Shown in pieces: positions 10,029 to 45,542 of a DNA stretch of 64,000 bases. The translations under genes and the position numbers were made by a program. The DNA is from a candidate division WOR-3 bacterium. Lineage in GTDB: Bacteria; Hydrothermota; 32-111. Location: the NCBI GenBank assembly GCA_039804205.1, contig JBDRZY010000003.1, positions 23,857 through 87,856 of the forward strand. Direction: 5' to 3'. The notes below the pieces were generated by a model. That model was not told where the DNA came from, did not search any database, and saw only the letters and a program-made list of their open reading frames with translations. Position 1 is the first letter of the stretch. Each line of letters begins with the position of its first letter.

Positions 10029-10029
10029 T

Positions 10030-10560
10030 ATGAAAAAAGAACAACCAGTAATCTTTTTAGATGGTAAAAAGGTCATACTCTCTCCAATTGAAGATGATGA
10101 CCTTTTTACCATTCAAAAAATTCTGAACGATCCTGATGTAAGAAAGAACCTTGCTGAAAGATTCCCACGAAACAGGATCATGTTAAAGGAGTTAATTTCT
10201 TTAAATAAAGAAAAAAAGGGAATTTTTTTAAAAATTGTTGAAAAAGAAAATTTTGAAACTGTTGGATTGATAAGTTTATCCGATTTTAATTGGCCAAACA
10301 GGAGAGCGATGCTTGCGATAGCTATTGGTAAAAATTTTCAGAATAAAGGATATGGAACCGAGTCGACAAAACTACTTGTTGATTACGGTTTTAAAAATCT
10401 ACAACTACATAAAATCTGTCTTGAGGTTTATGATTTTAATAAAAACGCTATAAAAATGTATAAAAAATTGGGTTTTAAACGGGAAGGAATTTTTAAAAAA
10501 CATTCGTTCAAAGATGGGAAATACGTTGATCTAATATTTATGTCCCTTTTAAATGAGTAG
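10030..10560 (+). CDS. GNAT family N-acetyltransferase (RimJ/RimL-like)
   Basis: ORF track. It has the GNAT core QNKGYGTESTKLLVDYGF...ICLEVYDFNKNAIKMYKKLGFKREG. Its ATG lies 1 nt after the TGA of the giant gene, indicating translational coupling. Confidence 0.7.
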   Translation: MKKEQPVIFLDGKKVILSPIEDDDLFTIQKILNDPDVRKNLAERFPRNRIMLKELISLNKEKKGIFLKIVEKENFETVGLISLSDFNWPNRRAMLAIAIGKNFQNKGYGTESTKLLVDYGFKNLQLHKICLEVYDFNKNAIKMYKKLGFKREGIFKKHSFKDGKYVDLIFMSLLNE

Positions 10561-11095
10561 AAAAAAATTTTTTTTATTTATCTTTTTTATTTTAACGAAT
10601 TTGATTTATGGAGATCCGATCGTTTTCTATCCTGGATCAGAAGAGAAGAGTGAACCTTTTGACAATATTTTCATTTTTAATTCGTCAGGTTTATGTTCTC
10701 TTGTAATAAAAGATCTAACAGGTTTTTACGATTTTGGAAAAGATGTTCTGATAAATTCAAAACCATTTTTAAAGGTTGACGTATCAGACAGAAATTACAT
10801 TGTTCTTGATACTTTTTTCTATTTATCAACCAAAAAATCTTTTGCGTGGTATCTTGAAAGTTATGAGAATGGTGTTTTGGAAAGGAGTAATATCCTTTTT
10901 TTCAACACTGGTGATGTTAATATACCATGTACATCAAATCAGAGTAAAGATGATTATCTTTCTATAATTTTTAAAATTTTTGGTATTGCAGGTTTTCATC
11001 CGACCGGAAGAGTATGGGTGAATGGAATAGAAATGGATATAAAAGATTTAAATTTTTATGATATTAAAAGTATAAGATGGAAAACAAAAAGATAA
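10553..11095 (+). CDS. hypothetical secreted protein (signal peptide)
   Basis: ORF track. The N-terminus is hydrophobic (FFLFIFFILTNLIYG). No family recognised. Overlaps the GNAT gene by 8 nt. Confidence 0.5.
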   Translation: MSRKKFFLFIFFILTNLIYGDPIVFYPGSEEKSEPFDNIFIFNSSGLCSLVIKDLTGFYDFGKDVLINSKPFLKVDVSDRNYIVLDTFFYLSTKKSFAWYLESYENGVLERSNILFFNTGDVNIPCTSNQSKDDYLSIIFKIFGIAGFHPTGRVWVNGIEMDIKDLNFYDIKSIRWKTKR

Positions 11096-11721
11096 TAATT
11101 CCCTTGATTTTAACACTATCGACTTTTTTTGTATTTTCAAAGGAAATAGGGGTTGTTAAAAATTCAAAAGGTTTTGTTTTCCAGAATGTGGGTGAGGAAA
11201 AAGAACCGTTAAAGAAAGGGGATATAATAAAAGATAGTTTCAACGTATCACTTGATAGATTTTCGTTGTTGGATGTTGTTTTGATTGACGGAAAAAGTGA
11301 AATGTCTGTTGTTGGAAATAGTGAATTTTCAACAAACATTTTTGAAATTTCTGATCAAACCGTTTTCAGATTAAATCTTAACTATGGAAACTTTTTCATT
11401 AAAACTTTTCAAAAAAATTTTCAGTTAAAAATTTTTGATACATTTATTTTTTTAGATAGTTCATATTTTTTCGTTGATTTAACGGATTCATTGGCGGAAA
11501 TTTTTATCATTTATTGTAAAAATTTCGAAGTTGAAAATGAGTACGGTAAACTAAGTGGGTCGAAAAATGAACAGATAATTTTAAGAAAGGGAGAAAACCC
11601 ATATAAACTTGAATCAGAAAAGAAAATTTCTAAACCAAAAATCTATAATGGTGAAAATATTATAGAAATAGAGTTGGAAAACTACAAAAATGATACGATT
11701 TATGTTCATATTGAAAACTAA
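11077..11721 (+). CDS. secreted FecR-domain-like protein
   Basis: ORF track. Signal peptide present. The segment VVLIDGKSEMSVVGNSEF...QTVFRLNLNYGNFFIKT fits the FecR-domain pattern (L.DGS...L...S......R.V.L..G.a.F.V). Confidence 0.4.
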   Translation: MENKKIIIPLILTLSTFFVFSKEIGVVKNSKGFVFQNVGEEKEPLKKGDIIKDSFNVSLDRFSLLDVVLIDGKSEMSVVGNSEFSTNIFEISDQTVFRLNLNYGNFFIKTFQKNFQLKIFDTFIFLDSSYFFVDLTDSLAEIFIIYCKNFEVENEYGKLSGSKNEQIILRKGENPYKLESEKKISKPKIYNGENIIEIELENYKNDTIYVHIEN

Positions 11722-13720
11722 GAAAATTTTTATCGTGGTTATTTTTGTTTTGTTATGCTTAAAAATTTTCTCTGGATTTATGGTGGATTACTCAAAAATA
11801 GATGAACTTTACAAAGGGGAAAACTTTACGATTTTTTTAATTTTTAAAGAGGATCCGTATAAGATTAGAGAAACATACATAGTTCTTTCAGATTTTAATA
11901 TTGAAAAAAAGTTTAAAATGAATTTTGAGGGTAACAGAGCTTTTATTTCAATACCTTATGATTCGTTACCACAAAAAGATTTCTATTACTATTTTGAAAT
12001 TTTAACAAAAGATAACAGAGTAGAATATCTACCGGAGATAATTCAGGAAAGGATGAAAAATATAGTTAGATTTATTAAAGAAAAAGAATTAAAAAAGGAA
12101 ATCATTTTATTGTTACCTGAAAATGAAGGAAAAATTGATCCTGATAATTTTGTATTTTCAGTTTATATTCCTGAAGGAACAAAAGATGTCAAAATAATAA
12201 TGGATGGAGAGGATATAACAAAAAAATGTTTAACAGGGGAAAAAATATTAACCTATGCACCAGAAAAACTTTTAAAACCGTCAAAATACAGAATAGATGT
12301 TGTAAATGAAGGGAAACTTGTCAAAACTTATCATTTTAACATTTCGAATAAAGATTTTTTTGAGAATCTTTTTAATGGAGAAATATCGTATAACTGCAGG
12401 TACGAAACAAACAATCTGGAAAACTTTTTCAACTCATATTCTGCTTATCTCTATGGTAACGTTGGTAATTTTTTATACAGTTTTAACATACACAATAATG
12501 TGTATTCAGGAGAAAATTTTTGGGACAAAAATAAAATAAACATTCTTCTAAATTTCAAAAAAGTTAATCTGAACTTGTTGGATCTTTATTATTATGATAG
12601 TTTTTCAAATTATGGTTTGATACCTTTAAAAGGATTTTACTTTTCCTATCAAGATTCTTTAACCCGTCTCTCAAATATTACAGCAAAAATAACGGATACT
12701 GAGAAAATTTTTTACATTATGACTTTTGATAAAAAATTGAAATTCTTTGGCTTGGGATTTGAAAACATGGTGTTGAAGGACTCCCTATTTCATATAAACT
12801 TCAAATTAAACAACGATTTATACCTCAACAGAAAGGTAAAACTATTCTACAACATCTCATCCCCATTCGTTTTATTGGAAAAAGATTTTTCAAATGGTAT
12901 GAGGGATTTGAGCAAATTTTCTTATAAAATCGGAAGCGAAATAGATTTAAAAAAATATCATGCTCTAATGTATATGATGAAAATTTCACACTACGATCAC
13001 ACTTTTTCTTATCATGATTACAATAAAATCTTTTTTAAAAATCAAATATTCGTAACAGAAGATCTTATTTTGACAGGAGATCTTGTTGTTAAAAATGATG
13101 AACAGGATAAAATTTTATTTTATAACTCAATCCGTAATGATCTCTTTACAAATTTGAACATTATCTATTCAAATAAAAATCTTCCATCTCTGTTTTTTTC
13201 TATCTCAAATAATATCTTCTCAAATAGAAATTTTGAAAACGATAAAGATTTTGTCTTCAAAACGACGACTGGAACATACTACGATACAAAATTAAAAGAG
13301 TTTGATCTTTTAGGAAAATTTTTTATAAATCAAACAAATTATAAATTTTCTGAAGAAGAAAAAAATCTTTCGACAGAGTATAATTTTTTATTTTCTTCAA
13401 CTTACAAAAGTATTTTTAGAACATCCATGAGTTTGAAAACATTGATAACTGATGAAAAGATAGAGAGGATAATTGATGAAAGATATGGTCTATATATTGG
13501 ATATGTAGATTCTGAAAACAGATTCTCGATGGGATTATTCACACAAATCTTTTTGAAACAAGATTCTGGTGTTTTAAAGAGAATGTTTTTATCTTTTTCC
13601 CCGGATCTGAAGTTGAAATTTAGATTTATAAATCTGAACTTTTATCCGTGTTTATGTCTAAATTTGTTGAGTCATAGTTATTATACATCTTTATCGTTAA
13701 ATTCTTCAACGACATTTTGA
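11690..13720 (+). CDS. hypothetical large exported protein, possible outer-membrane beta-barrel (676 aa)
   Basis: ORF track. N-terminal signal/anchor (IFIVVIFVLLCLKIFSG). Aromatic-rich with alternating hydrophobic residues and a C-terminal Phe (..SSTTF). No family recognised. Confidence 0.45.
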   Translation: MIRFMFILKTKKIFIVVIFVLLCLKIFSGFMVDYSKIDELYKGENFTIFLIFKEDPYKIRETYIVLSDFNIEKKFKMNFEGNRAFISIPYDSLPQKDFYYYFEILTKDNRVEYLPEIIQERMKNIVRFIKEKELKKEIILLLPENEGKIDPDNFVFSVYIPEGTKDVKIIMDGEDITKKCLTGEKILTYAPEKLLKPSKYRIDVVNEGKLVKTYHFNISNKDFFENLFNGEISYNCRYETNNLENFFNSYSAYLYGNVGNFLYSFNIHNNVYSGENFWDKNKINILLNFKKVNLNLLDLYYYDSFSNYGLIPLKGFYFSYQDSLTRLSNITAKITDTEKIFYIMTFDKKLKFFGLGFENMVLKDSLFHINFKLNNDLYLNRKVKLFYNISSPFVLLEKDFSNGMRDLSKFSYKIGSEIDLKKYHALMYMMKISHYDHTFSYHDYNKIFFKNQIFVTEDLILTGDLVVKNDEQDKILFYNSIRNDLFTNLNIIYSNKNLPSLFFSISNNIFSNRNFENDKDFVFKTTTGTYYDTKLKEFDLLGKFFINQTNYKFSEEEKNLSTEYNFLFSSTYKSIFRTSMSLKTLITDEKIERIIDERYGLYIGYVDSENRFSMGLFTQIFLKQDSGVLKRMFLSFSPDLKLKFRFINLNFYPCLCLNLLSHSYYTSLSLNSSTTF

Positions 13721-16813: not shown

Positions 16814-17029
16814 ATGAAAAAAGGGATACATCCAGAATATGTTGATGCAACGATACAATGCGCTTGTGGAAACCAGATAAAAACAAGAGCAACAAAAAAA
16901 TTGATAAAGGTTGAAATATGTTCAAAATGTCACCCATTCTTTACTGGAAAGCAGAAATTTGTTGATACAGCGGGAAGGGTTGATAAATATATGAAAAAAT
17001 TTGGAAAAAGCGATAAGAAAGAAAAATAG
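16814..17029 (+). CDS. rpmE: 50S ribosomal protein L31 (zinc-ribbon type)
   Basis: ORF track, 71 aa: MKKGIHPEY...CACGN...[21 protein letters not shown] lies 6 nt upstream. Confidence 0.85.
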
Positions 17030-19588
17030 TTATATTTCTATTTGGTATAATATTTTTATCTCTTCATCGTTATAGAATATTTTACCATTATCTTCAATAA
17101 AGATTTCATTTATATCAACATTTGTTTCTATAACCTGGTCTTTATTTTTCTTTAAAGGATAGTATATACCATAATATTTAATTTTAAAATTTTCAACTAA
17201 AAAACTTCTTTTAAAATCAAAAAGATTTTTTAAATAATTCCCATTTTGTGAAAAATTTTCCTGAATTTTTGTTTCTATATAATTTGAATTGAGTATCGTT
17301 GAAAATAGTGTAAAATGATCGATTAATATTATTGACGATGATGGATCTTTACCACCGGAAAGTATTTTCGCTTCATTTATTGTTACGCCGTATATATCGA
17401 TATCTCCAAAAGCGTTTATTGAAATGTTAACATCTCGATTAACTATACCACTTGCTATTCCAACGCCCACTCTGAACAACGATTTGAACTCAGGAGGAAG
17501 AAGTGCATACTCTATACCTTCATGGATCAATTTTTTTTCGTGAACATCGAAAAACCACTCTCTATAGTTTATGTAATTATCTTTGATGAACTGTTCAGCG
17601 TTTTCTACAAGTTTAAGTGAACATTTTAATGATTCTATTGATGAGGTCGAGGATTCTTTGATTATAAGATCTGAACCCGTTGCTATAGAATGTCTTATCA
17701 GAACATTTTTTGATGAAACGGACTCTTTGAAAAGAGTTCTATAAATTTCTTTTGAGTTTGAACAAAATATTGCGATACCTCCGTCACCGGTTTCTTTTAA
17801 AGGTAATCCAAAATTGTTTTTTATAGTATTATTTATGATATGTTGAAATTTCTTCATAATAAATTTTTGTTTTTCAGCATTGTTCAATTTTGAACTCATA
17901 TAACTTGATCCTCTAATATCATAAACAAGCACACTAACTAGTTTTGAATAATTCTTTTTTATAATGTTTTTTAGCTGTTCAACATCTGTATCTAAAAATC
18001 TTTGAGAAACCCCTTTCTCTGTATTTGAAATGAAAATAACCCTGTTAAAAGGTAAAAGGTTTACAGAGAGATTAAAGTTTAGAAGTTCTTGTTTGCTCTC
18101 CTGGTTTGTCAATTCTATGTTGAAAATTGTAAATGAATCGAAGAGAATCGAAACAATAAATTTGTCGATCAAATTTTCAACGATTTGTAAAAATTTTGAC
18201 TTTAAAAGTTCAAAATTAAATTTCTTTTGAAATTTCGATTCAACAAACAGATCCGAAATAAAATTTATCTCTTTTTGAACAATGCTGTTCTTTTTTTCAC
18301 TATACTCTTTTTTTAATTCTTCAAAAGAATTTTTTACAACTTTTATAATCTGTGGTTTAAATTTTTCAAAAAAGTTTTCAAAATCTTTTGAGTAATCAAA
18401 ATATATTAAAATTGAGAGAATAATATCATTTTTATCAAGTGTACCCTCATTTTTTAATATCTCGATATACTGGTCAAATGTCAGGTTTCTAAGATTTTCA
18501 TTTTTTACCATCTTCTTTTGAAAATTGTTCCATCTTTCTGTCAATTTATTCGCCTGCAATATATTTCCCATTACACTTCTGTTGAAGTCAATTATAAAAC
18601 TATTGATCTTGTTTGTAACCGTTGGATTTACAGGATATTTTATAGAGTCGATGGTTTCCTTTTTTATGTTCGAAGAAAAATTTTCTAAAGCGTCAACCAT
18701 ATCGTTTTTTATCTGTTCAAGTTGTTTTTCAAGGTCATCCTTTTCTTTGAGTAAAAATTCTCTCGTTTGTTTGGATTTTTTGATTATCGATTTTATCACT
18801 ATATCTTTTAATTCATCTCTTAAAAAAGGTAGATAGATGATATTGTCTGGTTTCATTATATCGTCTATTGACCATATAGTCCTGTTTTCATAATATTCAA
18901 TTATTTCCAATTCTTTTTCAAGGCTGGCTGCCGTATTGAACATTTTTAAAAGGTTGATAAATGTGTTCAATGAAAATCCATGTTCGTTAAAGAAACTTTC
19001 CCTTTCGATTTCAAGATCTTTGTTAATAATAGAGTTTCTTGTAAACTTTAAATTATCGAAGATCTTTGTTTGAAACTCTCTGTTAAAAATGTTTGTGGAA
19101 TAAAGTTCGTTTCTTACATCTTTTAAAATCTCTCTTATTCCATTAAGTTTTTCTTCAAAAAGAGTTTCATTGTGATCAAGATTTTCTTTGTGGGTATAAA
19201 ATACGCTGAAAAAAATTTTTAGCACTACGAGTTCAAACAAAAGGGAAGAATTCTGGTTTGTTTCAATAACATTTTTATAAAATTTTTTTATTTGTTGAGA
19301 AACCTCATTTTTATCGAGGGAGTTTAATATGTATAGTTTGAAAAGTGACTGTAACATTTCAAATTGATCAAAAGGAATCAATATAAAAATTTTACCATTC
19401 GATGAGTTGTCTAAAAAAATTTGTATCTGTGAAAGGTTAATGTTTCGATTTTTTAGGAGTATTAAGAGCCTCTGAATATTTTCTTGATACTGTTGTTTCT
19501 GACTAAAATTTTCATCAATATTTGATACAAATTTTGATTGGTTGAAAGTGATTAAAAACAGGTCTTTATATTCTACTTTTAAACCCAT
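17030..19588 (-). CDS. large protein with C-terminal class III nucleotidyl cyclase homology domain (divergent) and ~480-aa N-terminal domain of unknown function
   Basis: ORF track, 852 aa. The C-terminal part aligns to the adenylate/guanylate cyclase pattern: VLVYDIRGSSYMS (metal Asp), KETGDGGIAIF (second Asp), RVGVGIASGIV and YGVTINEAKIL. The last of these corresponds to GdtVNlAsRl, with Lys replacing the transition-state Arg, and there is a ~50-aa insertion. Its ATG overlaps the pyrC stop (TAATG). Confidence 0.5.
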   Translation of the reverse strand: MGLKVEYKDLFLITFNQSKFVSNIDENFSQKQQYQENIQRLLILLKNRNINLSQIQIFLDNSSNGKIFILIPFDQFEMLQSLFKLYILNSLDKNEVSQQIKKFYKNVIETNQNSSLLFELVVLKIFFSVFYTHKENLDHNETLFEEKLNGIREILKDVRNELYSTNIFNREFQTKIFDNLKFTRNSIINKDLEIERESFFNEHGFSLNTFINLLKMFNTAASLEKELEIIEYYENRTIWSIDDIMKPDNIIYLPFLRDELKDIVIKSIIKKSKQTREFLLKEKDDLEKQLEQIKNDMVDALENFSSNIKKETIDSIKYPVNPTVTNKINSFIIDFNRSVMGNILQANKLTERWNNFQKKMVKNENLRNLTFDQYIEILKNEGTLDKNDIILSILIYFDYSKDFENFFEKFKPQIIKVVKNSFEELKKEYSEKKNSIVQKEINFISDLFVESKFQKKFNFELLKSKFLQIVENLIDKFIVSILFDSFTIFNIELTNQESKQELLNFNLSVNLLPFNRVIFISNTEKGVSQRFLDTDVEQLKNIIKKNYSKLVSVLVYDIRGSSYMSSKLNNAEKQKFIMKKFQHIINNTIKNNFGLPLKETGDGGIAIFCSNSKEIYRTLFKESVSSKNVLIRHSIATGSDLIIKESSTSSIESLKCSLKLVENAEQFIKDNYINYREWFFDVHEKKLIHEGIEYALLPPEFKSLFRVGVGIASGIVNRDVNISINAFGDIDIYGVTINEAKILSGGKDPSSSIILIDHFTLFSTILNSNYIETKIQENFSQNGNYLKNLFDFKRSFLVENFKIKYYGIYYPLKKNKDQVIETNVDINEIFIEDNGKIFYNDEEIKILYQIEI

Positions 19589-20871
19589 TACTCTTTTCTC
19601 CGAAATACTATTTTACCTTTCAGTATTGTCATCTCTATGCTTCCAAACAATTTTTTATTAAAAAAAGGAGTGTTTATTGATTTTGACTTGATAAAGCTCC
19701 TGTCAACGGTAATCTCTTTATCTAAATCGACCACAGTAAGGTTTGCCACATTGCCTGTTTTGATATACCTTTCATCGATGTTTAGAATCTTTGCTGGATT
19801 GTATGCTAAAAGTTTTACGATTGTTTTTAAATCAGTTTTGTTTTTTAAAACAAGGTTTGTATATAAAGATGGGAATGATGTTTCAAATCCGATTATTCCA
19901 AAAGGTGCATAGATAAATTCGACCTCCTTTTCGTATACCTGATGGGGAGCATGATCTGTTGCTATTGCATCTATGGACCCATCGTTTATTCCTTTTATCA
20001 GATATTCAACATCGGTTTTTGATTTTAAGGATGGTTTTACTTTAAAATTTGTATCATACATGAAATGAACACTTTCATCAAAAATCAGATGGTGAGGGGT
20101 AACCTCACAGGTTATTTTTTTATTTTTCTTTTTAAAATCCTTGATAAGAGACAATGTATCCTTTGTTGATATATGTGCGATGTGAAGACCGGTTTTTAAA
20201 TATGTTGCAATTTTTAGATTTCTGTAAACCGCTATATCCTCTTCAATGTATGGGATTCCTGAAAGACCTGTTTTGATTGATACATCGGATTCGTTTATCT
20301 GTCCACCTTCAGTAAGATTTTTATCTTCACAATGTACTGAAACAAAAGTATCAAATCTTGAAATGTATCTTAATGCGTTAAAAAACACCCTCGAATTTTT
20401 GGTTCCTGTTCCATCGTCGGAAAAACCTTTAGCACCCGATTTTAACATATCATACATTTCTGTTATTTCTATTGATTCCATATTTTTTGTTAAAGCTCCA
20501 AGTGGATAGATTTCTATTCTTCCGAACTCCTGCTCTCTTTTTTTAATATATGTAATCGATTGGGGATTATCTATAGGGGGTTTTGTGTTTGGCATAATTA
20601 CTATTGAAGTATAACCACCACTCAAAGCTGATTCGCAACCCGTGAATATATCTTCCTTGAATTCTTCGCCGGGTTCTCTCAAATGTGAGTGTAGATCTAC
20701 GAAAGATGGAAAGAGATATTTACCTTTCAAATCTATACCTTCCTGTTTACCCCCATTTTCAATAGAAGTTATAATTCCATTTTTTATCACAACAGTTTTA
20801 TTTTTTTCTATTTTATCGTAATTTACTATATTGCAATTTTTTAAAACAAGATTATTCATTCTTTCCTCCAT
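19588..20871 (-). CDS. pyrC: dihydroorotase
   Basis: ORF track, 427 aa. DLHSHLREPG (HxH metal site) and ATDHAPH are present. Lies downstream of pyrB. Confidence 0.85.
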   Translation of the reverse strand: MEERMNNLVLKNCNIVNYDKIEKNKTVVIKNGIITSIENGGKQEGIDLKGKYLFPSFVDLHSHLREPGEEFKEDIFTGCESALSGGYTSIVIMPNTKPPIDNPQSITYIKKREQEFGRIEIYPLGALTKNMESIEITEMYDMLKSGAKGFSDDGTGTKNSRVFFNALRYISRFDTFVSVHCEDKNLTEGGQINESDVSIKTGLSGIPYIEEDIAVYRNLKIATYLKTGLHIAHISTKDTLSLIKDFKKKNKKITCEVTPHHLIFDESVHFMYDTNFKVKPSLKSKTDVEYLIKGINDGSIDAIATDHAPHQVYEKEVEFIYAPFGIIGFETSFPSLYTNLVLKNKTDLKTIVKLLAYNPAKILNIDERYIKTGNVANLTVVDLDKEITVDRSFIKSKSINTPFFNKKLFGSIEMTILKGKIVFRRKE

Positions 20872-21778
20872 TGAGTAAGTATAATATCGCCATCCTTATA
20901 GCAACTCCATTTGTGACCTGATCGAGGATAACAGATTTCTCACTATCAGCAACATTTCCATCAAGTTCGACGCCTCTGTTGATAGGTCCTGGATGCATTA
21001 TGATGCTTCTGTCTTTTATTCTCAGGTATCTTTCATAGGTCATTGAGTATTCTTTGACATACTCTCTTAAAGATGGGAACAGGCCTTTCTCCTGTCTTTC
21101 AAGTTGCATTCTCAAAATGTAAATGACGTCTTTATCCTGAATGGCTTTATCGATATCGTATTCGATAGTCACATCAAAATCGTTTAAATATAAAGGCATG
21201 AGTGTTGGAGGAGCACAGAGTGTTACCTTTGATCCATACTTTGAAAAGCCCCAGAGAAGTGATCTTGCAACTCTCGAATGGAGAATATCTCCAAGTATCA
21301 GAACTTTTAAATTTTTAAAATCTTTGTAGATTTCTTTAATCGTCATAAAATCAAGTAGCGCCTGTGTTGGATGCTCATGCGTTCCATCTCCCGCATTGAT
21401 AACATTTGAATTGATTCTTTCTGATAAAAATTTAGCTGCTCCTGGAGAACTGTGTCTTATAACAACCATATCCGTTTTCATAGATTCTATATTCTTTGCA
21501 GTATCAAGAAGCGATTCACCTTTCATAACCGATGATGTTTTTGTTGATACATTTACAGAATCAGCGGAAAGATGTTTTTCAGCTAGTGAAAATGAAACCA
21601 GAGTTCTAGTACTTGGCTCAAAAAAAAGATTCACTACCGTTTTTCCTCTCAACGCTGGAACCTTTTTTATTGGTCTTAAAAGTATATCTTTAAAGGAAAA
21701 ACCGTTTTCGATTATAAAATCAATCTCTTCCTTCGTTAATTCTTCGATAGATAATAGATGTTTCTTTGTCCAGTTCAA
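20852..21778 (-). CDS. pyrB: aspartate carbamoyltransferase catalytic subunit
   Basis: ORF track, 308 aa. STRTLVSF (STRT motif) and HPTQALLD (HPxQ motif) are present. Confidence 0.9.
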   Translation of the reverse strand: MNWTKKHLLSIEELTKEEIDFIIENGFSFKDILLRPIKKVPALRGKTVVNLFFEPSTRTLVSFSLAEKHLSADSVNVSTKTSSVMKGESLLDTAKNIESMKTDMVVIRHSSPGAAKFLSERINSNVINAGDGTHEHPTQALLDFMTIKEIYKDFKNLKVLILGDILHSRVARSLLWGFSKYGSKVTLCAPPTLMPLYLNDFDVTIEYDIDKAIQDKDVIYILRMQLERQEKGLFPSLREYVKEYSMTYERYLRIKDRSIIMHPGPINRGVELDGNVADSEKSVILDQVTNGVAIRMAILYLLNGGKNE

Positions 21779-22311
21779 AATTCCTCCTTTTCAACACAAT
21801 CTTTTCCATCGAGTTCTTTTAAAAAGACATTTATGTTATCTTTTTTAGGAATCTCTATCTCTATACCTGAAAAGTCAGGTCTTATTGGAAGTTCGCGTGA
21901 TTTTCTATCGATAAGAACAAAAAGTTTTATGGTTCTTGGTCTTCCAATATCAAGGATTTCGACAAGTGCACTCCTGATGGTTCTTCCAGTAAAAAAAACA
22001 TCATCGAAAAGGTATATAACTTTATCATTTATATCAAAGAGAACTTCTGTTGATCTTACCAATGGTTGATGATCGATTAAGGAAAGATCATCCCTGTAAA
22101 GATTTATATCGATTTTCCCAATCTGTATGTTGAGATTCTTTTTTTTAAGGATTTTTTCAGCCACTCTTTTTGCAATAATATCTCCCCTTTTGATTATGCC
22201 TATAAATGCAACATCTTCTGGATTTTTTTCGTTTTCCAGTATTTGATCAGCCATCTTATCTATAATTTTTGAAATGTCATTTTCGTTCAATATTAAAGTT
22301 TTTTTTGACAT
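21775..22311 (-). CDS. pyrR: bifunctional pyrimidine operon regulator / uracil phosphoribosyltransferase PyrR
   Basis: ORF track, 178 aa. PRTase motif LFDDVFFTGRTIRSAL. Overlaps pyrB by 4 nt. Confidence 0.8.
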   Translation of the reverse strand: MSKKTLILNENDISKIIDKMADQILENEKNPEDVAFIGIIKRGDIIAKRVAEKILKKKNLNIQIGKIDINLYRDDLSLIDHQPLVRSTEVLFDINDKVIYLFDDVFFTGRTIRSALVEILDIGRPRTIKLFVLIDRKSRELPIRPDFSGIEIEIPKKDNINVFLKELDGKDCVEKEEF

Positions 22312-22316
22312 ATTAC

Positions 22317-22778
22317 CTACTTTTTAAAGTTCTGTTTTATAAACTCTATAGATTCATCTATCAAACCTTTTTTTAAAAGTTCAACAACATGTTCAATTTT
22401 TTTTTGATCGATATTTGTACTTTCGGTTGTTAAATCGTCAAAAGTTAAGTCCTGTGTCGAAGAGGTAGTATTGAATAGAAAGGAAGAACCATCAGCAACT
22501 TTCTCTTCATTTTTTTCAAAAATATTCTCTCTGGAAATGTCCTTTGATGGCAGTTTTGTATTGTCTTTCTCAACATTTTCTGTATCTGGAAATATTTCAC
22601 CCTCATCTTTTGAAGTTGGTGATGTTCCCAGATTTTCTATTCCAGAAATTCCTTCATCTTTTTTTTCTTCAACTTTTGGAGTAACTTTTTCCTTTTTCTC
22701 CTGAAAAAGTTTTGCAAACGGATTATCTTTTTCATTTTCTTTGTTTGTCGAAATTTTTTTTAAAAAATCTTCAGACAT
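22317..22778 (-). CDS. hypothetical acidic Glu/Lys-rich protein
   Basis: ORF track, 153 aa of low-complexity acidic sequence with a structured-looking C-terminus. Overlaps the upstream TPR gene by 8 nt and ends 5 nt before pyrR. Confidence 0.4.
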   Translation of the reverse strand: MSEDFLKKISTNKENEKDNPFAKLFQEKKEKVTPKVEEKKDEGISGIENLGTSPTSKDEGEIFPDTENVEKDNTKLPSKDISRENIFEKNEEKVADGSSFLFNTTSSTQDLTFDDLTTESTNIDQKKIEHVVELLKKGLIDESIEFIKQNFKK

Positions 22779-23805
22779 CTATTTCTCCTTCTTTTATGAT
22801 TTTTAGTTTTTCTTTTGCTTCTTCAAGATATGGATTTATTTCCAGAGCTTTGGACCAGTTTTTTACAGCATCATCATATTTTTTCAAAGAATGGAATGCA
22901 TTTCCAAGCATTAAATATGCTTCTGAAAAATCAGGATTCAAATCGATAGCTTTTTTGAAATTTTCCGATGCGAGTTCAAATTGGTTATTCGATAGATACA
23001 TTAAACCAAGATTGTTGTAAACTTCCGCAAAGTCAGGGAAAATTTCAATCGCTTTTTTAAAGTTTTCTTCTGCTTTTTGCTGATTGCCAAGTTTTAGATA
23101 GGTTTGAGCTATATTGTTGTAAATTTCTGGTGATGTTGGATCGAGTTCATTTGCTTTGAGAAAATAATTCAATGCTGTACTGAAGATTCCTCTATAGAAC
23201 AAGAGTAGACCTCTTTCGTTGTAAATCTTAGCTTGCATCATTGCAAATTCAGTTTCCCTTTTCTTTGAAAGGTTTTCCTCATAATCAACGACCTTCATGA
23301 TGGTTTCCGCAATTTTCCCAAGATTTGAAATTAAAGAATCCATTTTAACTAACATATTCTGATTTTTCTCATTGAAATTTTCAATGAGAAGTTTAATATT
23401 TTCCCTTTCTTCAGAGATCAGTTTCGTGATGTTATCAAGGTTGTTTGAAATGTTTTCAAGTTTTGATTCCAGAATCATTATCTGCTCTTTTGAACTATCA
23501 GAATTGTTTTTTATAATTTCTTTCATTTCTGGAAGAATCGATATCGTTTCATTGATCGCTTCGAATCTCAACAATGTTTCTTTAAAATTGTTTGTTATCG
23601 AATCGTTAGAATCTTTTATCTGTTTTAAAAATTCCTTTAAATCTTCTTCTATTTTTTCAAGATTAAAAGATCTTTGTTCATCACTTTTCTTATTTTCACT
23701 TTCACTTTGTTTTGAATAATTTACTTCCTCTTTAGGGATCTCCCTGTTTTCTTCTTCTGGAGTTTGTTCTTCTATCGGATTTTGGTTCTGAAGATTATCT
23801 TCCAT
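22771..23805 (-). CDS. coiled-coil + TPR-repeat protein
   Basis: ORF track, 344 aa. The N-terminal half shows a coiled-coil heptad pattern. The C-terminal half has ~5 TPR units (e.g. AEVYNNLGLMYLSNNQFELASENFKKAIDLNP). Confidence 0.65.
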   Translation of the reverse strand: MEDNLQNQNPIEEQTPEEENREIPKEEVNYSKQSESENKKSDEQRSFNLEKIEEDLKEFLKQIKDSNDSITNNFKETLLRFEAINETISILPEMKEIIKNNSDSSKEQIMILESKLENISNNLDNITKLISEERENIKLLIENFNEKNQNMLVKMDSLISNLGKIAETIMKVVDYEENLSKKRETEFAMMQAKIYNERGLLLFYRGIFSTALNYFLKANELDPTSPEIYNNIAQTYLKLGNQQKAEENFKKAIEIFPDFAEVYNNLGLMYLSNNQFELASENFKKAIDLNPDFSEAYLMLGNAFHSLKKYDDAVKNWSKALEINPYLEEAKEKLKIIKEGEIDV

Positions 23806-23818
23806 ATATACTCCTTTT

Positions 23819-26800
23819 TTAAATTATAATCCTATAATCAGAGAAGAGGTTTTTATAATATTTTGTTTTGGTTAACTCTGAAGAGAATCCAATGTCCATT
23901 TTTTTATTTCTTAACATACCTTCTATTTCACCATAGTATCCGAGTTTTTTCATCAAATTTATCAGATGGTTTAAATGTTTCGTTTCTGAAGAATCTCTTA
24001 GTTTTGATCCTATTTCTAAAGCGTATGTAATGTTACCAATTCTCTCATAATTCAACGAAAGTATATAGGTCCTCTCATAATCTAAATTTTTGTCTTTAAA
24101 TTTTCTGTTGAGCAGATTTATGGATTCATAATATCTTTGTTGTTTGTATAAATTGAAAGCGTATTCGATTCTCATTTTCTCATCATCAATTTTTTCTTTT
24201 TGGAATAATTTTTCAATTTTTGATCCCTTTTTACTTTTTTCCTCTTCATACATCTGGAAGATTATCTCATAGTAAAGGTCGATGTTCAAATTTTTTAAAA
24301 AGGAGATTATTTCATTCTTCTTTTCTTGGTTTCCCAAAAATCTGAATGCCTGAGCAAGCAAAATCCCATATCTGATCTTTTCTTCATTTTTGGTGGTTTT
24401 CTCATAAATCTCCATCGTTAATTCAATAAGTTTATCAAATTTATTCAGGTCGTAATACAGATGGGAAAGAAGAGATATCATTTTTTGATTTTTTGGATCT
24501 TTACTGAGGATAAGATTTGCTTTTTCTATTATACGATCGTAATCATCAGATTCTGATGTAAGATAGAGGAAATTCAACCAGTTTGACGCATTTTCAAAAT
24601 CATCTTTTTCAAAGTAAAGGTCAACAAGAAATAGTTGTATTTCAAAATTTTTATTTTCAAGTTCTATTATTCTATCGATAATCTCCTCAATATACTTTTT
24701 GTTTATCTTTATAATCTTTGAGTAAAGTTCAACAGCATCAGTTGTTCTATTCAATTTAAGATAAGAATCAGCAAGGGATATCAAAAGAAAAGTGTTGTTA
24801 GGTTCGTTTACAAGCATTTCTTTGTAAAAACTTATTACATTTTCTGTCTCGGAAGGATTTATAAGTTCTATTTGTCTTAAAAGTGTTATCGCCTGCATAT
24901 AATTATGCATATCTTTATAGACCTGAGCGAGCGAAAATCTTGGATCCACCTCATCGGGTTGCTGATTTATTATAAACAGTAGCTGTGATATCACTTTTTC
25001 CTTTAAACCAGTCTCTATAGACATAGCATTGTACAGGTAATCGGAAGCAAGTTTATAAAGACCTTTTTTTGCATAGAAAACTCCGGTTGCATAAAGAATC
25101 TCTCCATTTTCAGATTCCTTTTCAATATAATTTGACATAAGGTTTAAAATCGAATCGAGGTACGAACTATCGATTTCAAAAGTTTCATACATTTTTGAAA
25201 TACCTTTTTCGTACTGGGCTGTTTCAAAATACAGGGTTCCCAGAGAAAAATTAAGTTTTGGATTGTTTATAATGTTTTCGTTCCATTTTTCCAATTCTGA
25301 TATTGCTATGTTTATCTGATTGGGATCGATCTTTACTATTTCAAGTAGTTCATCTATAGCTGAATCGATATTTTTATTCAGATAGTATGCAAGGGAGAGT
25401 GTATAATGGATTCTGAGTGAAAATGGATCATACTTCAACAGATCTTTTAATATGGTGAGCGTATTTTCTGTTAAGGTTTTATCAAGGATTATTGCTTGAT
25501 AAAGAACTGTTGCCGCATCGTTTACCATACCTTTGTTTGCATACGCTTTTCCAAGGAAAAATTTTATTTTACCAATTTTTTGTTGATCAAGTTTTGAAGA
25601 AAGGTTATCAGCTTCCTTTATTATCTTTTCGTAAAATCCCATTTCATCAAGAATATCCATTATGCTTTCAACTATGGAAACGTTTTCTGGATGATTTTTG
25701 TTCAATATATAGAGATTATCAAGAATGTGTCCTAATTTTGTTTTGTCTTTTCTAAGTTTTATAAGAGATTCGTAGGCTTTCCTGTAATCTTTTTTGTCTG
25801 TGAAAAGTTTGAATTCAAAGTCGGCAACGAGTTCATTTTCAGGATAAAAATCTTTAATCCTTCCAAGAAGTTCAAGTAAATCATCCTCTTTTTCGGGAAA
25901 TTTTTCAAACATTTCTTTTAACATTCCAAGAGAGAATTCAAGATCTGAAGCAAGATAGGACATCTCACAGAGGGAAAAATCATATAAAAAAGGATCAAGT
26001 TTTTTTCTTTCAATGCTTTTTAAGATCTTCAAAACTATTGTTGCAACATCTTTATCGTTTTTTGCTGAATTGTAGAACTGAGGGATGATTATATAAAATG
26101 TCTCAGGGTTCGATTTTAAAGTTTCGGTTATCATTACTTCTGATTCTTTGATTTTTCCCAATTTTATTAGAGCGATACTCAGGTTTAATCTTATATCAAC
26201 ATCTGATGGGTTTTTATCGTAGATTGTTTGCAGGTATTTTTTTGCGATAGAGATGTGTTCTTCATTGTTTATTGAAATAAGATATTCACATATCTTTTTC
26301 AGTTTCTCCACCTCGTTCTTATCAAGAAAAATTTGACAGATTGTTTCCAGTGCATCGATATTTTCTGGATCTTTATCAAGAATTTTATTTGCGAGTTTTT
26401 CAACATCGAAAGTATAGGAATTGTTTTTGAAATATACATTTTTGATTATTTTTGCTGATTCATTAAATTCGTTGCTATCGGAAAATATGTTTGCTTTAAG
26501 TAAAAGTATTTCTTCGTTTGACAGGTTTTCATTTTCTATTCGATTTATCGTATTGAGAATAAAATCCTTTTCTTCTTTTTTTAACTCATAAATTTTTTCA
26601 AGATTTGTGAATATTTTTGATATTTCTTTTTTTATAAGGAAAATTTCGACTAAAAGTTTATAACCTTCAACAAATTCTGGAGCACCCTGTATTATCTGAT
26701 ATGTTCTCCTGACGATCTCTTCCGTGACTTCATTTTTATCTTTTATCATTTCATAGATAATATCCAGTGCTTTTTTATAATCTTTTTTTTCTATCGCGAG

Positions 26801-27607
26801 ATCAACAATTGAATATTTACTTGTTTCAGAGATCTCTTTAGTGTCAGTTATATGTTCTTCAATCTTGTTTGATATATCTGTTTTTAATTTAGGATCTATT
26901 GAAGAAGCTTTTTGAAAATAGTTTATCGCTTTATCTTTATCGTTTATCAATATATAAAGATCTCCTATTGCGATATAAGGTTCAGGATTACCGTATGTTG
27001 TTTTTGCAACATTTATATACTCTGAGAGTATATAATCTCTATCCTTAACCTGTGTTCTAAACATCATTTCAAGAATCGGTTTTGCCTCTTTGAAATTTTT
27101 GTTATAAAGATATAAAATGCCCATCGATAAACATATCTCAATATCCTTTTTGTTAAACTGGTCAACCGTTTTTATATTTTTAACATTGATATATAGTTTC
27201 TCGAAGTATCCTATAAGATTTTTTATTTCTTCACCTGATAATGTATCGAAAATTTTTCTAAAAGATTCAAAGTCCCTTTTTTTTATATACATTTCAATAA
27301 GAACGGATGCAGTTTGATCCTTTTGTGATGTTGCCCTGTAATGTAGATCCTCTCCAACATTTATAATCTTGTTTATCTCTTCAGGTGAAAGATAATATGA
27401 ACTTCTCAGGGTATTTACAGATTCAAAGACTTTACCCATCTCAAATTGTGTTTTTGCAAGTTCAAGCAGTATTATGAAATCTGATTTTGAATTTTTAATG
27501 CTCTTTTTTAACAGTTGTTCAGCTTTATCATGTTTACCTTCTATTCTCAGCTTACTACTTCTTTCAATTATTTTTGTGGGATCACCTGAAGAGAAAAGAT
27601 CTAACAT
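23819..27607 (-). CDS. very large TPR-repeat protein (1,262 aa)
   Basis: ORF track. Dozens of TPR-like units of 34 aa with W/LG/Y...A...P spacing run throughout. No signal peptide. Confidence 0.7.
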   Translation of the reverse strand: MLDLFSSGDPTKIIERSSKLRIEGKHDKAEQLLKKSIKNSKSDFIILLELAKTQFEMGKVFESVNTLRSSYYLSPEEINKIINVGEDLHYRATSQKDQTASVLIEMYIKKRDFESFRKIFDTLSGEEIKNLIGYFEKLYINVKNIKTVDQFNKKDIEICLSMGILYLYNKNFKEAKPILEMMFRTQVKDRDYILSEYINVAKTTYGNPEPYIAIGDLYILINDKDKAINYFQKASSIDPKLKTDISNKIEEHITDTKEISETSKYSIVDLAIEKKDYKKALDIIYEMIKDKNEVTEEIVRRTYQIIQGAPEFVEGYKLLVEIFLIKKEISKIFTNLEKIYELKKEEKDFILNTINRIENENLSNEEILLLKANIFSDSNEFNESAKIIKNVYFKNNSYTFDVEKLANKILDKDPENIDALETICQIFLDKNEVEKLKKICEYLISINNEEHISIAKKYLQTIYDKNPSDVDIRLNLSIALIKLGKIKESEVMITETLKSNPETFYIIIPQFYNSAKNDKDVATIVLKILKSIERKKLDPFLYDFSLCEMSYLASDLEFSLGMLKEMFEKFPEKEDDLLELLGRIKDFYPENELVADFEFKLFTDKKDYRKAYESLIKLRKDKTKLGHILDNLYILNKNHPENVSIVESIMDILDEMGFYEKIIKEADNLSSKLDQQKIGKIKFFLGKAYANKGMVNDAATVLYQAIILDKTLTENTLTILKDLLKYDPFSLRIHYTLSLAYYLNKNIDSAIDELLEIVKIDPNQINIAISELEKWNENIINNPKLNFSLGTLYFETAQYEKGISKMYETFEIDSSYLDSILNLMSNYIEKESENGEILYATGVFYAKKGLYKLASDYLYNAMSIETGLKEKVISQLLFIINQQPDEVDPRFSLAQVYKDMHNYMQAITLLRQIELINPSETENVISFYKEMLVNEPNNTFLLISLADSYLKLNRTTDAVELYSKIIKINKKYIEEIIDRIIELENKNFEIQLFLVDLYFEKDDFENASNWLNFLYLTSESDDYDRIIEKANLILSKDPKNQKMISLLSHLYYDLNKFDKLIELTMEIYEKTTKNEEKIRYGILLAQAFRFLGNQEKKNEIISFLKNLNIDLYYEIIFQMYEEEKSKKGSKIEKLFQKEKIDDEKMRIEYAFNLYKQQRYYESINLLNRKFKDKNLDYERTYILSLNYERIGNITYALEIGSKLRDSSETKHLNHLINLMKKLGYYGEIEGMLRNKKMDIGFSSELTKTKYYKNLFSDYRIII

Positions 27608-27738
27608 TTATCCTCCTTCCAAATTCCCATACTCTTTTATTTTATATATAGGTGAAAAAATGTCAATTATTAAAAATATAATTTTTCTTGTTTTTTTTTT
27701 GAAAGTTAATAGAATATTTTAAAACGATAAGGGGATAT

Positions 27739-28797
27739 ATGAAAAAATTTGTTATTTTATTTTTAATTTTTTGTGCATTTTCTCAAACATTGTTATCGTC
27801 TGAAAAATTCTATAGATTTTTGGATTTTGATCTGATAGGTAGAATCGATGGCAAAGAAAAGATTACAAAATCAGAATTTGAAAAGATAGAGGGTTATAAA
27901 ATATACTATGATAATAAAAAAAGACCAATTTCTATAGAAATCTGTTATAAAGGAAAACCTGTTGAAAAAGATATTTTTGATTGGAAAACCAACATTTCAA
28001 AAATAGAGATTTCCTATACTGACACATTTGTGAAGATAGAAGATGACAGTTTGTTTGCTGAAAAAATGGTTTATAGATTCTTTGATAGAAAAAATGAAAG
28101 TGTTAAAATTTTTAATAGGGCTGAAAAAATAGTTTTTGTGACTTTTGATACGAAAAAACATTGTTGTGAAAAGATTATTTCATATTATGAAGATGGGCTG
28201 GGAGAAAAGGTTCCATCTGTTGATTCTGTCCTGATAAAACTCACCACTATCGTTAAGAATAAAAATTCAACTAGATGGGAAGTAAATTTTTATAGTGTTG
28301 GAGAAAAGGGAAATCTATTTTTATCACCTGACATTCTTGGATTTGAAAAGATTGTTAGAATTCAAAAAAATGAAACTATCGTTGATTCGTTAAAATTCTT
28401 TAACAGGGAAGAATACATTGTTTTAAGTACCGAAAAGGTTGAGGAGGGAGATTTCCAGGGTACCAAGAGTCTAAAAATAAAGGAAGATTCTAAAGGTGAT
28501 CTTCAAAAATTTTACGAGTTAATTTTTTATGATGATATTGGATATGAGTTTAAAAAGATTTATCTTGATACACTTTTAAAACCTGTTGACATTGATTCAA
28601 ATTTTGCGACCAGAATAATCAAGAGAAATAGTAATTTTACATATGATAAAGTTGAATATTTTTCTTCAGATCCTCTATTAAAAGCAAAGATGCCTCCTTC
28701 GATGAAATATAATGGGTATCCTTTGTTTAAAATTTTAACAAAGAAATTTGTATACGATAAAGATTACAACCTTTTGGGAGTTGAAAAGATAGAATGA
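27739..28797 (+). CDS. hypothetical secreted protein
   Basis: ORF track, 352 aa. Signal peptide FVILFLIFCAFSQTLLSS. RBS AAGGGG lies 4 nt upstream. Overlaps the following GT4 gene by 4 nt. Confidence 0.5.
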   Translation: MKKFVILFLIFCAFSQTLLSSEKFYRFLDFDLIGRIDGKEKITKSEFEKIEGYKIYYDNKKRPISIEICYKGKPVEKDIFDWKTNISKIEISYTDTFVKIEDDSLFAEKMVYRFFDRKNESVKIFNRAEKIVFVTFDTKKHCCEKIISYYEDGLGEKVPSVDSVLIKLTTIVKNKNSTRWEVNFYSVGEKGNLFLSPDILGFEKIVRIQKNETIVDSLKFFNREEYIVLSTEKVEEGDFQGTKSLKIKEDSKGDLQKFYELIFYDDIGYEFKKIYLDTLLKPVDIDSNFATRIIKRNSNFTYDKVEYFSSDPLLKAKMPPSMKYNGYPLFKILTKKFVYDKDYNLLGVEKIE

Positions 28798-29918
28798 ATA
28801 TTCTAATAATCAATTGGAGAGATTTAAAAAATCCTCTGTATGGTGGTGCTGAAATTCATATAACAAAAATTGCAGAGCACCTTGCTAAAAAACATAAAGT
28901 ATTCTTCTTAACATCTGGTTATAAAGGTGCAAAAGATGAATCGATCAACAATGTTTCCTATATACATACCGGAAACGAATTGTTGTTCAACTATTTTGTT
29001 ACCTTTAAAATAAGAGATTTAGTTAAGGAAAAAAAAATAGATCTTATCATAGAGGATATAAATAAAGTTCCATTTTTTACGCCTTTACTTGTTAAGATTC
29101 CAGTTTTCGTTGTGGTACCCCATATTTTTGGAAAAACGATTTTTAAACAAACGAATTTTATTTTTGGAACCTATGTGTATCTTTTTGAAAAACCTATAAG
29201 GATTGTATATAAAAAATCCTATTTTGAGGTTATTTCAAATTCAACGAGAGATGATCTTTTAAAAAGAGGCATAGATGGGAAAAGGATAAAAGTAATAGAA
29301 TGTGGGATCGATAAAAGATTTTTTGGTTATGATTATCAAAAAAAAGAATACCCTCAGATATGTTATGTTGGAAGGTTGAAAAAATATAAATCTGTTCATC
29401 ACCTTATAAAAGCTTTCAAAAAGGTCAAAGAACAATGTAAGGAATGTGTTTTATACATTGTTGGAATGGGAGATTATGAAACTGAGTTAAAAAAATTGGT
29501 TAAAAGGTTAAGGATAGAGGATGTTATTTTTACAGGATATGTTCCTGAACATGAGAAGATAAAAATTTTACAGGAAAGCTGGATATCAGTATATCCATCC
29601 TATATTGAAGGGTGGGGCATAGTCAACATTGAAGCGAACGCACTTGGAACTCCCGTTATTTCATCAAATGTTTTAGGACTCAAAGATTCGGTTAAAGATG
29701 GATTTTCGGGTTTGCTTTATGAATATGGAAATATAGAACAACTTGCAGAGAAAATACTGACTCTTTTAAAGAATCGGGAAAAACTTAAACAGATGGAAAA
29801 TGATGCTAAAAAATGGGCAAAAAATTTTGATTGGGAAAAAACGAACAATCTTTCAGAAGATTTTATTGAAGATTTCATTACAGAAGTTGTAAAATCCAAA
29901 ACTATTGACAACAAATAG
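28794..29918 (+). CDS. glycosyltransferase family 4 (GT-B)
   Basis: ORF track, 374 aa. C-terminal GT4 signature EGWGIVNIEANALGTPVISSNVLGLKDSV (E-x7-E). Confidence 0.75.
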   Translation: MNILIINWRDLKNPLYGGAEIHITKIAEHLAKKHKVFFLTSGYKGAKDESINNVSYIHTGNELLFNYFVTFKIRDLVKEKKIDLIIEDINKVPFFTPLLVKIPVFVVVPHIFGKTIFKQTNFIFGTYVYLFEKPIRIVYKKSYFEVISNSTRDDLLKRGIDGKRIKVIECGIDKRFFGYDYQKKEYPQICYVGRLKKYKSVHHLIKAFKKVKEQCKECVLYIVGMGDYETELKKLVKRLRIEDVIFTGYVPEHEKIKILQESWISVYPSYIEGWGIVNIEANALGTPVISSNVLGLKDSVKDGFSGLLYEYGNIEQLAEKILTLLKNREKLKQMENDAKKWAKNFDWEKTNNLSEDFIEDFITEVVKSKTIDNK

Positions 29919-29940
29919 TTTAATAATTAAAATATATTTT

Positions 29941-36796: not shown

Positions 36797-37740
36797 TGGA
36801 AATAAATGATATTTTGACTTTATCGGAAAATAAAAACTTTTTTGTAATATCAGGGAACTATTCTGAGGATATAAAAAGTATTATACAAAAGTTGAAAGAA
36901 AAATATATATCAACTGGTGCTGAGGATTTTGATTACTTCGAATTTTATATTGATGAGAATAACGAAGAAGAATTTTATAGTAAGATTTTAACACCTCCAT
37001 TTATCTCTGAAAAAAAAATTTTTGTCTTCAAAGATGGTTTAAAGATTTCTAAAAATTTTGCCGAAAGAATAGATGATTTAGCCTCTGGGCTTGAAAAAAA
37101 TATAATACTTATAATTCTTTGCATTGATGAAGAGGAACTTGCCCCATATGAGATAAAAAAAGTTTCTGAACAAAAATTCAAAAACGCACTTCATTTTTTT
37201 GTTGAGATGGATCCTCGCTTTCTTAAAAATATAAACATAAAACGAATAGTTGAGTTTGGAAAAGTTAGAGATATGGAAATAACTGATCTCATGGCACAAA
37301 AATTACTCGACTTTACTGATGGAAATATTTATTCTGTTTTTAACATAATCAACTCTTCATACATGAAAGGAGAAATTTTAACTTTAGATGATATTCAGAA
37401 ATTACAGGATAAAGTTGAATTTTACGATTCATACATTTTCGATTTTCTTAACAATCTATCGGAAAAAAGATTAAAGGAAACAATAATGTCGTATAGAAAA
37501 TGTCTTGAATGGAAACTTCTGACTAACGATGGACTTGTTATGATGCTTTTAAAACAATTCTCTGAAGCAAAAAAAAATGAAAAAAGCAAATTTAAAAATT
37601 GGGATGAAAAAGTGTTGAAAAAAAGTTTTGAAATAGTATATAATCTTTTAAGGGATCTAAGAAAATTCAATCAAAGGTATGGAACATTGTTAGTAGAAGA
37701 ATCTCTCATAAAAATAATAAAGGGGGAAGAATGGACTTAA
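36796..37740 (+). CDS. holA: DNA polymerase III delta subunit-like (HolA-like)
   Basis: ORF track, 314 aa. The N-terminal pattern FFVISGNYSEDIKSII...ILTPPFISEKKIFVFKDGLKIS fits the HolA N-terminal domain. Start overlaps the porV-like stop (TAATG). Confidence 0.4.
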   Translation: MEINDILTLSENKNFFVISGNYSEDIKSIIQKLKEKYISTGAEDFDYFEFYIDENNEEEFYSKILTPPFISEKKIFVFKDGLKISKNFAERIDDLASGLEKNIILIILCIDEEELAPYEIKKVSEQKFKNALHFFVEMDPRFLKNINIKRIVEFGKVRDMEITDLMAQKLLDFTDGNIYSVFNIINSSYMKGEILTLDDIQKLQDKVEFYDSYIFDFLNNLSEKRLKETIMSYRKCLEWKLLTNDGLVMMLLKQFSEAKKNEKSKFKNWDEKVLKKSFEIVYNLLRDLRKFNQRYGTLLVEESLIKIIKGEEWT

Positions 37741-45528: not shown

Positions 45529-45542
45529 TTTTCTCCCCCTTT

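Follow-up and report, generated by a model that had tools for sequence, protein, structure and literature searches.

The 852-residue open reading frame (ORF) at 17030..19588 on the minus strand of a 64,000-nucleotide stretch of a candidate division WOR-3 genome (contig JBDRZY010000003.1; the whole 64-kb stretch is hereafter the window) stands at the end of a gene cluster that contains pyrR, pyrB and pyrC, and encodes a protein whose C-terminal part proves to be a class III cyclase-homology domain (CHD), genuine but very divergent. We put at about even odds (probability roughly 0.5) the reading that this is a non-canonical adenylyl-cyclase-type signalling protein, which in its ancestral setting was the cyclic AMP (cAMP) source of a relay from cAMP to cyclic di-GMP (c-di-GMP). 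The relay is suggested by the retention of metal-binding and specificity residues throughout the family, including both copies where the gene is duplicated, combined with the tight coupling of the gene in most related loci to a diguanylate cyclase gene resembling Lcd1 of Leptospira. An earlier note on this stretch, made from the sequence alone, had seen the likeness to class III cyclases and had proposed that the enzyme might tie a pyrimidine-derived cyclic nucleotide to pyrimidine supply under the PyrR regulator.

A divergent class III cyclase domain

The cyclase homology seen in that note is borne out by a family profile, by profile-profile alignment and by structure, and it lies beyond the reach of routine annotation. 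The 852-residue protein stayed below the Pfam gathering score and gave no PF00211 match even at E <= 1; in NCBIfam it drew only a sub-threshold match to the LipJ adenylate cyclase (E 0.077), and neither phmmer nor the family profile found a match for it in the PDB. When the family profile was run against 1.84 billion (1.84e9) representative proteins it found 48, of which the two weakest are bona fide PF00211 proteins (P0062, E 1.6e-4, and P0063, E 2.6e-4, both whole-library values), in which the match falls on the first part of the cyclase domain. Alignment by hhalign of 47 C-terminal domain sequences with P0062 and P0063 extended the match to the entire cyclase domain (168 columns, 97.9% probability, E 2.6e-12). 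For Foldseek, residues 535-852 were modelled a second time with a deeper alignment. This model reached a pLDDT of 85.2 and a pTM of 0.87, and every one of its best 50 matches was a class III cyclase (E from 6e-8, target TM about 0.7, with some alignments exceeding 300 columns), the solved class III cyclases being its best structural neighbours. Thus, from profile, hhalign and structure evidence, we conclude that the CHD is a genuine, very divergent class III cyclase domain. It is also the best-conserved part of the protein among the closest relatives (the window clade, defined below), at 62-99% identity compared with 36-92% for the N-terminus.

Residue equivalences were taken from the hhalign alignment to P0062, and family-wide conservation from a table of about 108 members from 80 loci. 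The parts of the protein and its landmark residues are as follows.

17987..19588, minus: residues 1-534, nearly all alpha-helical
17249..17986, minus: residues 535-780, class III cyclase-homology domain, with a short helix before it and three insertions
17918..17920, minus: D557 (YDIRGS), first metal-binding Asp, aligned with the TDIKGS Asp of P0062
17783..17797, minus: K598-E-T-G-D602; D602 is the second metal-binding Asp, aligned with the KTMGD Asp of P0062, and K598, four residues before it (Asp-4), aligns with the purine-specifying Lys
17363..17398, minus: D731-IYGVTI-N738-EA-K741-I742, helix-4 region; D731, seven residues before N738 (Asn-7), aligns with the adenine-specifying Asp, N738 with the catalytic (transition-state) Asn of VNVASR and K741 (Asn+3) with a Ser position, and I742 (Asn+4) stands at the canonical transition-state Arg position
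17033..17248, minus: residues 781-852, C-terminal segment, beta-rich by secondary-structure prediction

The four motifs on which the cyclase assignment had originally been based (YDIRG, KETGD, FRVGVGIASG and DIYGVTINEAKI) are all present, but they occupy residues 553-743, and so the last 300 residues rather than the last 250. On careful alignment both metal-binding Asp residues, D557 and D602, are retained, and they are invariant in the roughly 108 members, as are Y556, R559, G560, S561, K598, G601, G603, G604, G708, G710, D731 and G734. The DIRGS stretch is the motif of the triphosphate loop. The specificity positions held by K598 and D731 are known from Rv1625c and the mammalian cyclases. 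The transition-state Arg, which had been described as replaced by Lys, is indeed absent, but the residue at its position is I742 and the Lys stands one residue before it. Position 742 is hydrophobic (Ile, Leu or Phe) in every member tabulated, Lys at position 741 is confined to the window clade and one Cloacimonadota-type clade, and position 738 varies by clade, being N, D, R, S, A, G or H. Similarly, the insertion of about 50 residues reported earlier exists, but as three separate insertions (at approximately 615-650, 683-700 and 716-727, some 60-70 residues in total), the second of which contains a family-invariant LLPPEFK..F motif. Judged by its residues, the CHD keeps all that is required for metal-ATP binding while lacking the canonical transition-state Arg; catalysis may be weak, or may proceed via another basic residue, for which R559 is a universal and K741 (here) or R738 (in the paralogue A described below) a clade-specific choice.

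Identity to class III adenylyl cyclases of solved structure (Pseudomonas aeruginosa CyaB, 3r5g; S. platensis CyaC, 1wc1; mammalian AC C1, 1cs4/1cjk; Mycobacterium tuberculosis Rv1625c, 7yzi) is only about 15%. The CHD protein differs from them in having no PF00211 match, in its three insertions, in Ile, Leu or Phe replacing the canonical Arg throughout its family and in a helical N-terminus of about 530 residues that is unique to it. The P. aeruginosa pseudo-cyclase, a class III AC-like ATP-binding protein (6yii), is structurally less similar to the CHD than the active cyclases are; compared with it, the CHD family keeps both metal-binding Asp residues and the specificity pair, in another domain context.

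The N-terminal region contains two very long helices (258-317 and 323-367, 45-60 residues each). The earlier impression that this part is unrecognised holds for all of its approximately 530 residues, for which searches of Pfam, NCBIfam and the PDB returned nothing and a structure search gave generic helical bundles only. At the other end, part of the beta-rich segment 781-852 may, according to the model, complete the cyclase sheet. Membrane anchoring was considered and rejected, since hydrophobic windows never rise above 1.67 and there is no transmembrane segment.

The family and its GAF-GGDEF partner

A word-indexed search found 16 homologue clusters, all of about 850 residues and 41-95% identical, from WOR-3 or unclassified metagenome-assembled genomes (MAGs), and a second homologue search with a wide alignment returned the same 16 proteins. 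Scanning one genome per species gave 149 confirmed stretches, of which the best 80 loci, with flanks of up to 8 kb each (a few contigs end early upstream), had their ORFs called, clustered and mapped; all neighbourhood counts given here refer to these 80, numbered with L. They come from MAGs labelled WOR-3, TA06, Stahlbacteria, Edwardsbacteria, Cloacimonadota and UBP2.

Outside the window clade the commonest neighbour of the CHD gene is a downstream GGDEF gene on the same strand, found in 55 loci and mostly overlapping it by 4 or 1 nt, with a REC-GAF-GGDEF or GAF-GAF-GGDEF architecture in Pfam. Among solved structures, the partner's GAF domain comes closest to 5w10 (E 7e-35), and next to the cAMP-binding GAF domains of Anabaena CyaB2 and the cyclic nucleotide-binding GAF domains of PDE2, PDE5 and PDE10. 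Entry 5W10 shows the GAF domain of Lcd1 from Leptospira (PMC11800159); binding of cAMP to this domain activates Lcd1, which is a diguanylate cyclase (PMC8846402). Identity to the Lcd1 GAF domain is 28-40% in all 55 partners. The gene that follows the CHD gene in these loci therefore shares the GAF-GGDEF design of the Leptospira interrogans protein, but with the differences that the putative cAMP source here sits in the same operon, that many partners carry an extra receiver domain or a second GAF domain, and that the window itself has no partner. By analogy, the likeness to Lcd1 suggests a relay from cAMP to c-di-GMP.

In many WOR-3 and Stahlbacteria loci (L035, L039, L053, L057-L085) two tandem CHD paralogues, overlapping by 4 nt, precede the GAF-GGDEF gene; they are about 805-837 and 754 residues long (in L057, for example, 7128-9545 and 9542-11809). 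Both retain the two metal-binding Asp residues and the Lys/Asp specificity pair; in paralogue A the position of the catalytic Asn holds Arg, and that of R706 holds Gln. The two likely form a heterodimer. Complementary decay of the pair in the style of mammalian C1 and C2 was rejected, as both copies keep these four residues and neither has the transition-state Arg.

A neighbour-joining tree of the CHD, to be read as a rough guide only, places the window clade, a distant pyr-linked clade and the Cloacimonadota-type clade (with the order TPR-TPR-x-tldD-CHD-GGDEF) in one subfamily, and sets apart from it the tandem paralogues A and B and an Edwardsbacteria/UBP2 group.

The pyrimidine gene cluster

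In the window the CHD gene is the last of seven minus-strand genes that follow one another without a break (TPR-TPR-x-pyrR-pyrB-pyrC-CHD), with gaps of at most 13 nt throughout.

27639..27666, minus: sigma-70-like promoter match TTGACA-16-TAAAAT, 11/12 consensus positions, upstream of the first TPR gene
27607..23819, minus: 1262-residue TPR-repeat gene, head of the cluster (ORF call and Pfam)
23805..22771, minus: 344-residue TPR-repeat gene (ORF call and Pfam)
22778..22317, minus: 153-residue gene with no family match, ending 5 nt upstream of pyrR
22311..21775, minus: pyrR, PyrR / uracil phosphoribosyltransferase family (Pfam and NCBIfam)
21778..20852, minus: pyrB, aspartate carbamoyltransferase catalytic subunit (Pfam and NCBIfam)
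20871..19588, minus: pyrC, dihydroorotase (Pfam and NCBIfam)
19588..17030, minus: 852-residue CHD gene (ORF), final gene of the cluster
16814..17029, plus: rpmE, ribosomal protein L31, convergent with the CHD gene (Ribosomal_L31 in relatives)

Coordinates and sequence agree with the earlier description of the junctions: the overlap is 4 nt between pyrR and pyrB and, depending on the choice of pyrC start, 8-20 nt between pyrB and pyrC, and the pyrC stop and the CHD gene start have one base in common (gag TAATG ggt). The promoter match at 27639..27666 is a consensus match only, the best and the sole strong one in the region, and is a candidate for the start of a seven-gene transcript. The spacing makes it most likely that the CHD gene is transcribed together with the rest of this cluster, as its last gene. 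The next gene is, as had been noted, the convergent rpmE, followed by rho and then an MCP gene. The stop codons of rpmE and the CHD gene abut with 0 nt between them (window 17027-17032), and no terminator-like hairpin is predicted at this junction; with adjoining stops and no such hairpin, the two transcripts must overlap or collide.

Translational coupling to pyrC, which had been singled out as a special feature, does not distinguish this gene. Overlaps of 1 or 4 nt equally tie CHD family genes to whatever gene lies upstream (mltG, tldD or a creatininase-like gene) and to the GGDEF gene downstream. Within the window itself, longest-ORF calling gives 42 pairs of neighbours on the same strand; about 29 of these pairs overlap and 35 lie within 5 nt, and since overlaps are so common here the pyrC/CHD junction is not special.

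The adjacency to pyr genes is itself real, and the comparison with relatives shows both its reach and its limits. In the window clade (L006-L017, plus L001-L005) the entire order from TPR-TPR-x-pyrR-pyrB-pyrC-CHD to rpmE-rho-MCP is conserved; the 153-residue gene, acidic and of low complexity, is kept only within this clade (31-89% identity, L001-L017). A further 20 distant loci, at 24-39% identity and with other synteny gone, also have pyrR-pyrB-pyrC directly upstream of the CHD gene, in some cases separated from it by a PmbA/TldD gene that follows pyrC. The order in this distant clade is pyrRBC-CHD-GGDEF followed by a 522-residue gene of the phosphoribulokinase/uridine-kinase family (L019-L055 group; L029 10512-12080), and so the CHD-GGDEF pair has pyrimidine-related genes on both sides. 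The pairing noticed in the window thus recurs, but it does not define the family: linkage to pyrRBC is found in 32/80 loci, all within one subfamily, and in the other 48 no pyr genes were detected in the flank. The genes upstream in non-pyr loci are ruvX-mltG, rhomboid-family and creatininase-like genes, or TPR-TPR-x-tldD. As the pyr-linked loci share one subfamily, a single ancestral pyrRBC-CHD-GGDEF arrangement suffices to account for them, the GGDEF and uridine-kinase genes having later been lost in the window clade. The linkage is probably best explained, in the simplest terms, by operon inheritance in very compact genomes.

Apparent orthologues of both TPR genes (1150-1160 and about 620-640 residues) lie upstream of the CHD gene in Cloacimonadota-type loci (L025 and L044; also L034, L049 and L050) with no pyr genes between, and for this reason the TPR genes may be older companions of the CHD gene than pyrRBC. 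Homology of the 153-residue gene to a Cloacimonadota gene of about 150 residues in the same position was rejected (hhalign probability 3.7%).

Regulation by PyrR, as proposed earlier, found no support. The pyrR product itself scores 179.8 bits with the NCBIfam PyrR equivalog model NF003549, whose cut-off is 138. Rfam, run over the whole window, gave no family at gathering score, and hence no tRNA, riboswitch or leader element; a PyrR-binding RNA was not found in the window at that score, in 19000-28500 at E <= 10, or in 8 related pyr-linked loci. A search for the core of the PyrR binding loop gave chance-level matches only, and the sole exact CCAGAGAG, within the 153-residue gene, is unstructured and missing from close relatives. 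Three genes precede pyrR, and since it starts 5 nt after the 153-residue gene there is no leader space for attenuation. The cluster resembles a Bacillus-type PyrR-attenuated pyr operon in having a PyrR-family gene ahead of pyrB and pyrC, with overlapping reading frames, but differs from it in the undetected PyrR-binding RNA, in the three genes before pyrR and in closing with a signalling gene rather than with more pyr genes. PyrR attenuation at this operon is thus unsupported, and other modes of regulation are possible.

Elsewhere in the window, a 3133-residue ORF (627-10028, plus) has Reelin subrepeat-B, Kre9/KNH Ig-like, CHB_HEX_C and BNR repeat matches and an N-terminal hydrophobic stretch, and its product is probably secreted or located at the cell surface. 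At 27739-44369, 12 plus-strand genes form a block with tight overlaps, and one of them (31326-35831, plus) encodes a 1501-residue protein with a gingipain-type Peptidase_C25 domain. The minus-strand region 44413-60565 is a cell-division and cell-wall cluster in which nearly all junctions overlap; FtsZ and FtsA were identified by Pfam, and the other genes have an order and sizes typical of mur, fts and mraZ genes, as judged by eye only.

Alternative readings and a proposed ancestral relay

In the reading we favour, the protein would be a cytoplasmic signalling protein in which a long helical N-terminal region that probably serves for input or dimerisation precedes a very divergent class III catalytic domain. 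Family-wide, the CHD protein and the overlapping downstream GAF-GGDEF diguanylate cyclase would constitute a two-gene module, which in one subfamily came to stand behind pyrR-pyrB-pyrC, often with a uridine-kinase-family gene after it. In the window clade the pyrRBC-CHD order would have been retained and the GGDEF and kinase genes would have disappeared from this locus, in which the convergent rpmE-rho is now found. The window CHD would still bind nucleotide and would probably be a weakly or non-canonically active cyclase, with its receptor encoded elsewhere. Several points weigh against this. No member has the canonical transition-state Arg, whose loss strongly lowers activity in class III cyclases that have been characterised, and the residue at the catalytic Asn position differs between members of the family. 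The substrate assignment draws on two aligned residues only, the protein does not reach the PF00211 threshold, and a GAF similarity to Lcd1 of 28-40% is no proof of cAMP binding. Co-transcription is read from gene spacing only. Nowhere in the 64 kb of the window does a gene encode a GAF, GGDEF or REC domain, so that the relay cannot be demonstrated for this organism.

The missing Arg and variable Asn would also fit a non-catalytic pseudo-cyclase that binds Mg-ATP, or another nucleoside triphosphate, without turnover and acts as a nucleotide-sensing regulator or scaffold, for instance of the neighbouring diguanylate cyclase. We regard this as possible but doubtful. All of the approximately 108 sequences, both tandem copies included, retain the metal-binding Asp residues, the Lys/Asp pair and the residues of the triphosphate loop, whereas degenerate cyclase subunits such as mammalian C2 and those of soluble guanylyl cyclase (sGC) usually lose the Asp pair; moreover, a conserved partner with a GAF domain of the cyclic nucleotide type implies that a cyclic nucleotide is made by something nearby. 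An Asp pair without the Asn and Arg could also serve some other palm-domain chemistry, such as that of a nucleotidyltransferase, an oligonucleotide or dinucleotide synthase or a GTP-cyclohydrolase-III-like hydrolase, which we consider improbable.

The company of pyr genes invites an explanation in terms of pyrimidine supply, in which the protein makes cyclic UMP (cUMP) or cyclic CMP, or senses a pyrimidine nucleotide, and is expressed under PyrR. This too seems improbable to us: in 48 of the 80 loci other genes lie upstream and pyr genes were not detected, the pyr-linked loci need only one ancestral arrangement, no PyrR RNA site was detected and there is no leader space for one, and gene overlap is generic in this genome. 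A pyrimidine-derived product is not indicated either, K598 and D731 forming the adenine-type pair. Nor do the bacterial enzymes that make such products offer a match: PADLOC, with its models of the Pycsar cyclase PycC, returned no family match for the 852-residue protein at E <= 1. The CHD gene differs from Pycsar (PycC; cUMP synthase 7r65, cytidylate cyclase 8jsf) also in its adenine-type specificity residues, in having no Pycsar effector beside it (its neighbours are the convergent rpmE and pyrC, and in relatives the GAF-GGDEF enzyme) and in being a conserved syntenic core gene of whole lineages, across many genomes, rather than a patchy defence-island gene. The absence of support for a defence role, already remarked upon in the earlier note, is thus confirmed. 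A bolder version would make the CHD and GAF-GGDEF pair a dedicated module, placed between pyrRBC and the uridine-kinase-family gene, through which bacteria of the WOR-3, TA06 and Stahlbacteria type couple second-messenger signalling to their supply of pyrimidine nucleotides, with the Arg-less CHD using or sensing a pyrimidine nucleotide or having a catalytic mechanism new to class III cyclases. Pyrimidine metabolism has been linked to c-di-GMP-dependent traits in Escherichia coli (PMC3281075), and a metabolic link through the uridine-kinase-family gene of the distant clade is conceivable; we nevertheless think the dedicated module unlikely.

What has been found is an unannotated CHD variant of a known superfamily with a recognisable signalling logic, and no new kind of system. 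If the favoured reading of an adenylyl-cyclase-type protein and ancestral cAMP source is true, this would be an unannotated, deeply divergent branch of the class III cyclases, conserved as a core gene in several uncultured candidate phyla, and most lineages would hard-wire it to a diguanylate cyclase with a cAMP-type GAF domain, as a compact, operon-encoded relay from cAMP to c-di-GMP. The pyrimidine-operon context is probably historical, and still a possible metabolic input. The universal loss of the Arg together with the perfect retention of metal and specificity residues implies either that another catalytic residue has taken over or that the family is a conserved nucleotide-sensing pseudo-enzyme, and either catalytic outcome would be useful for annotating candidate-phylum genomes.

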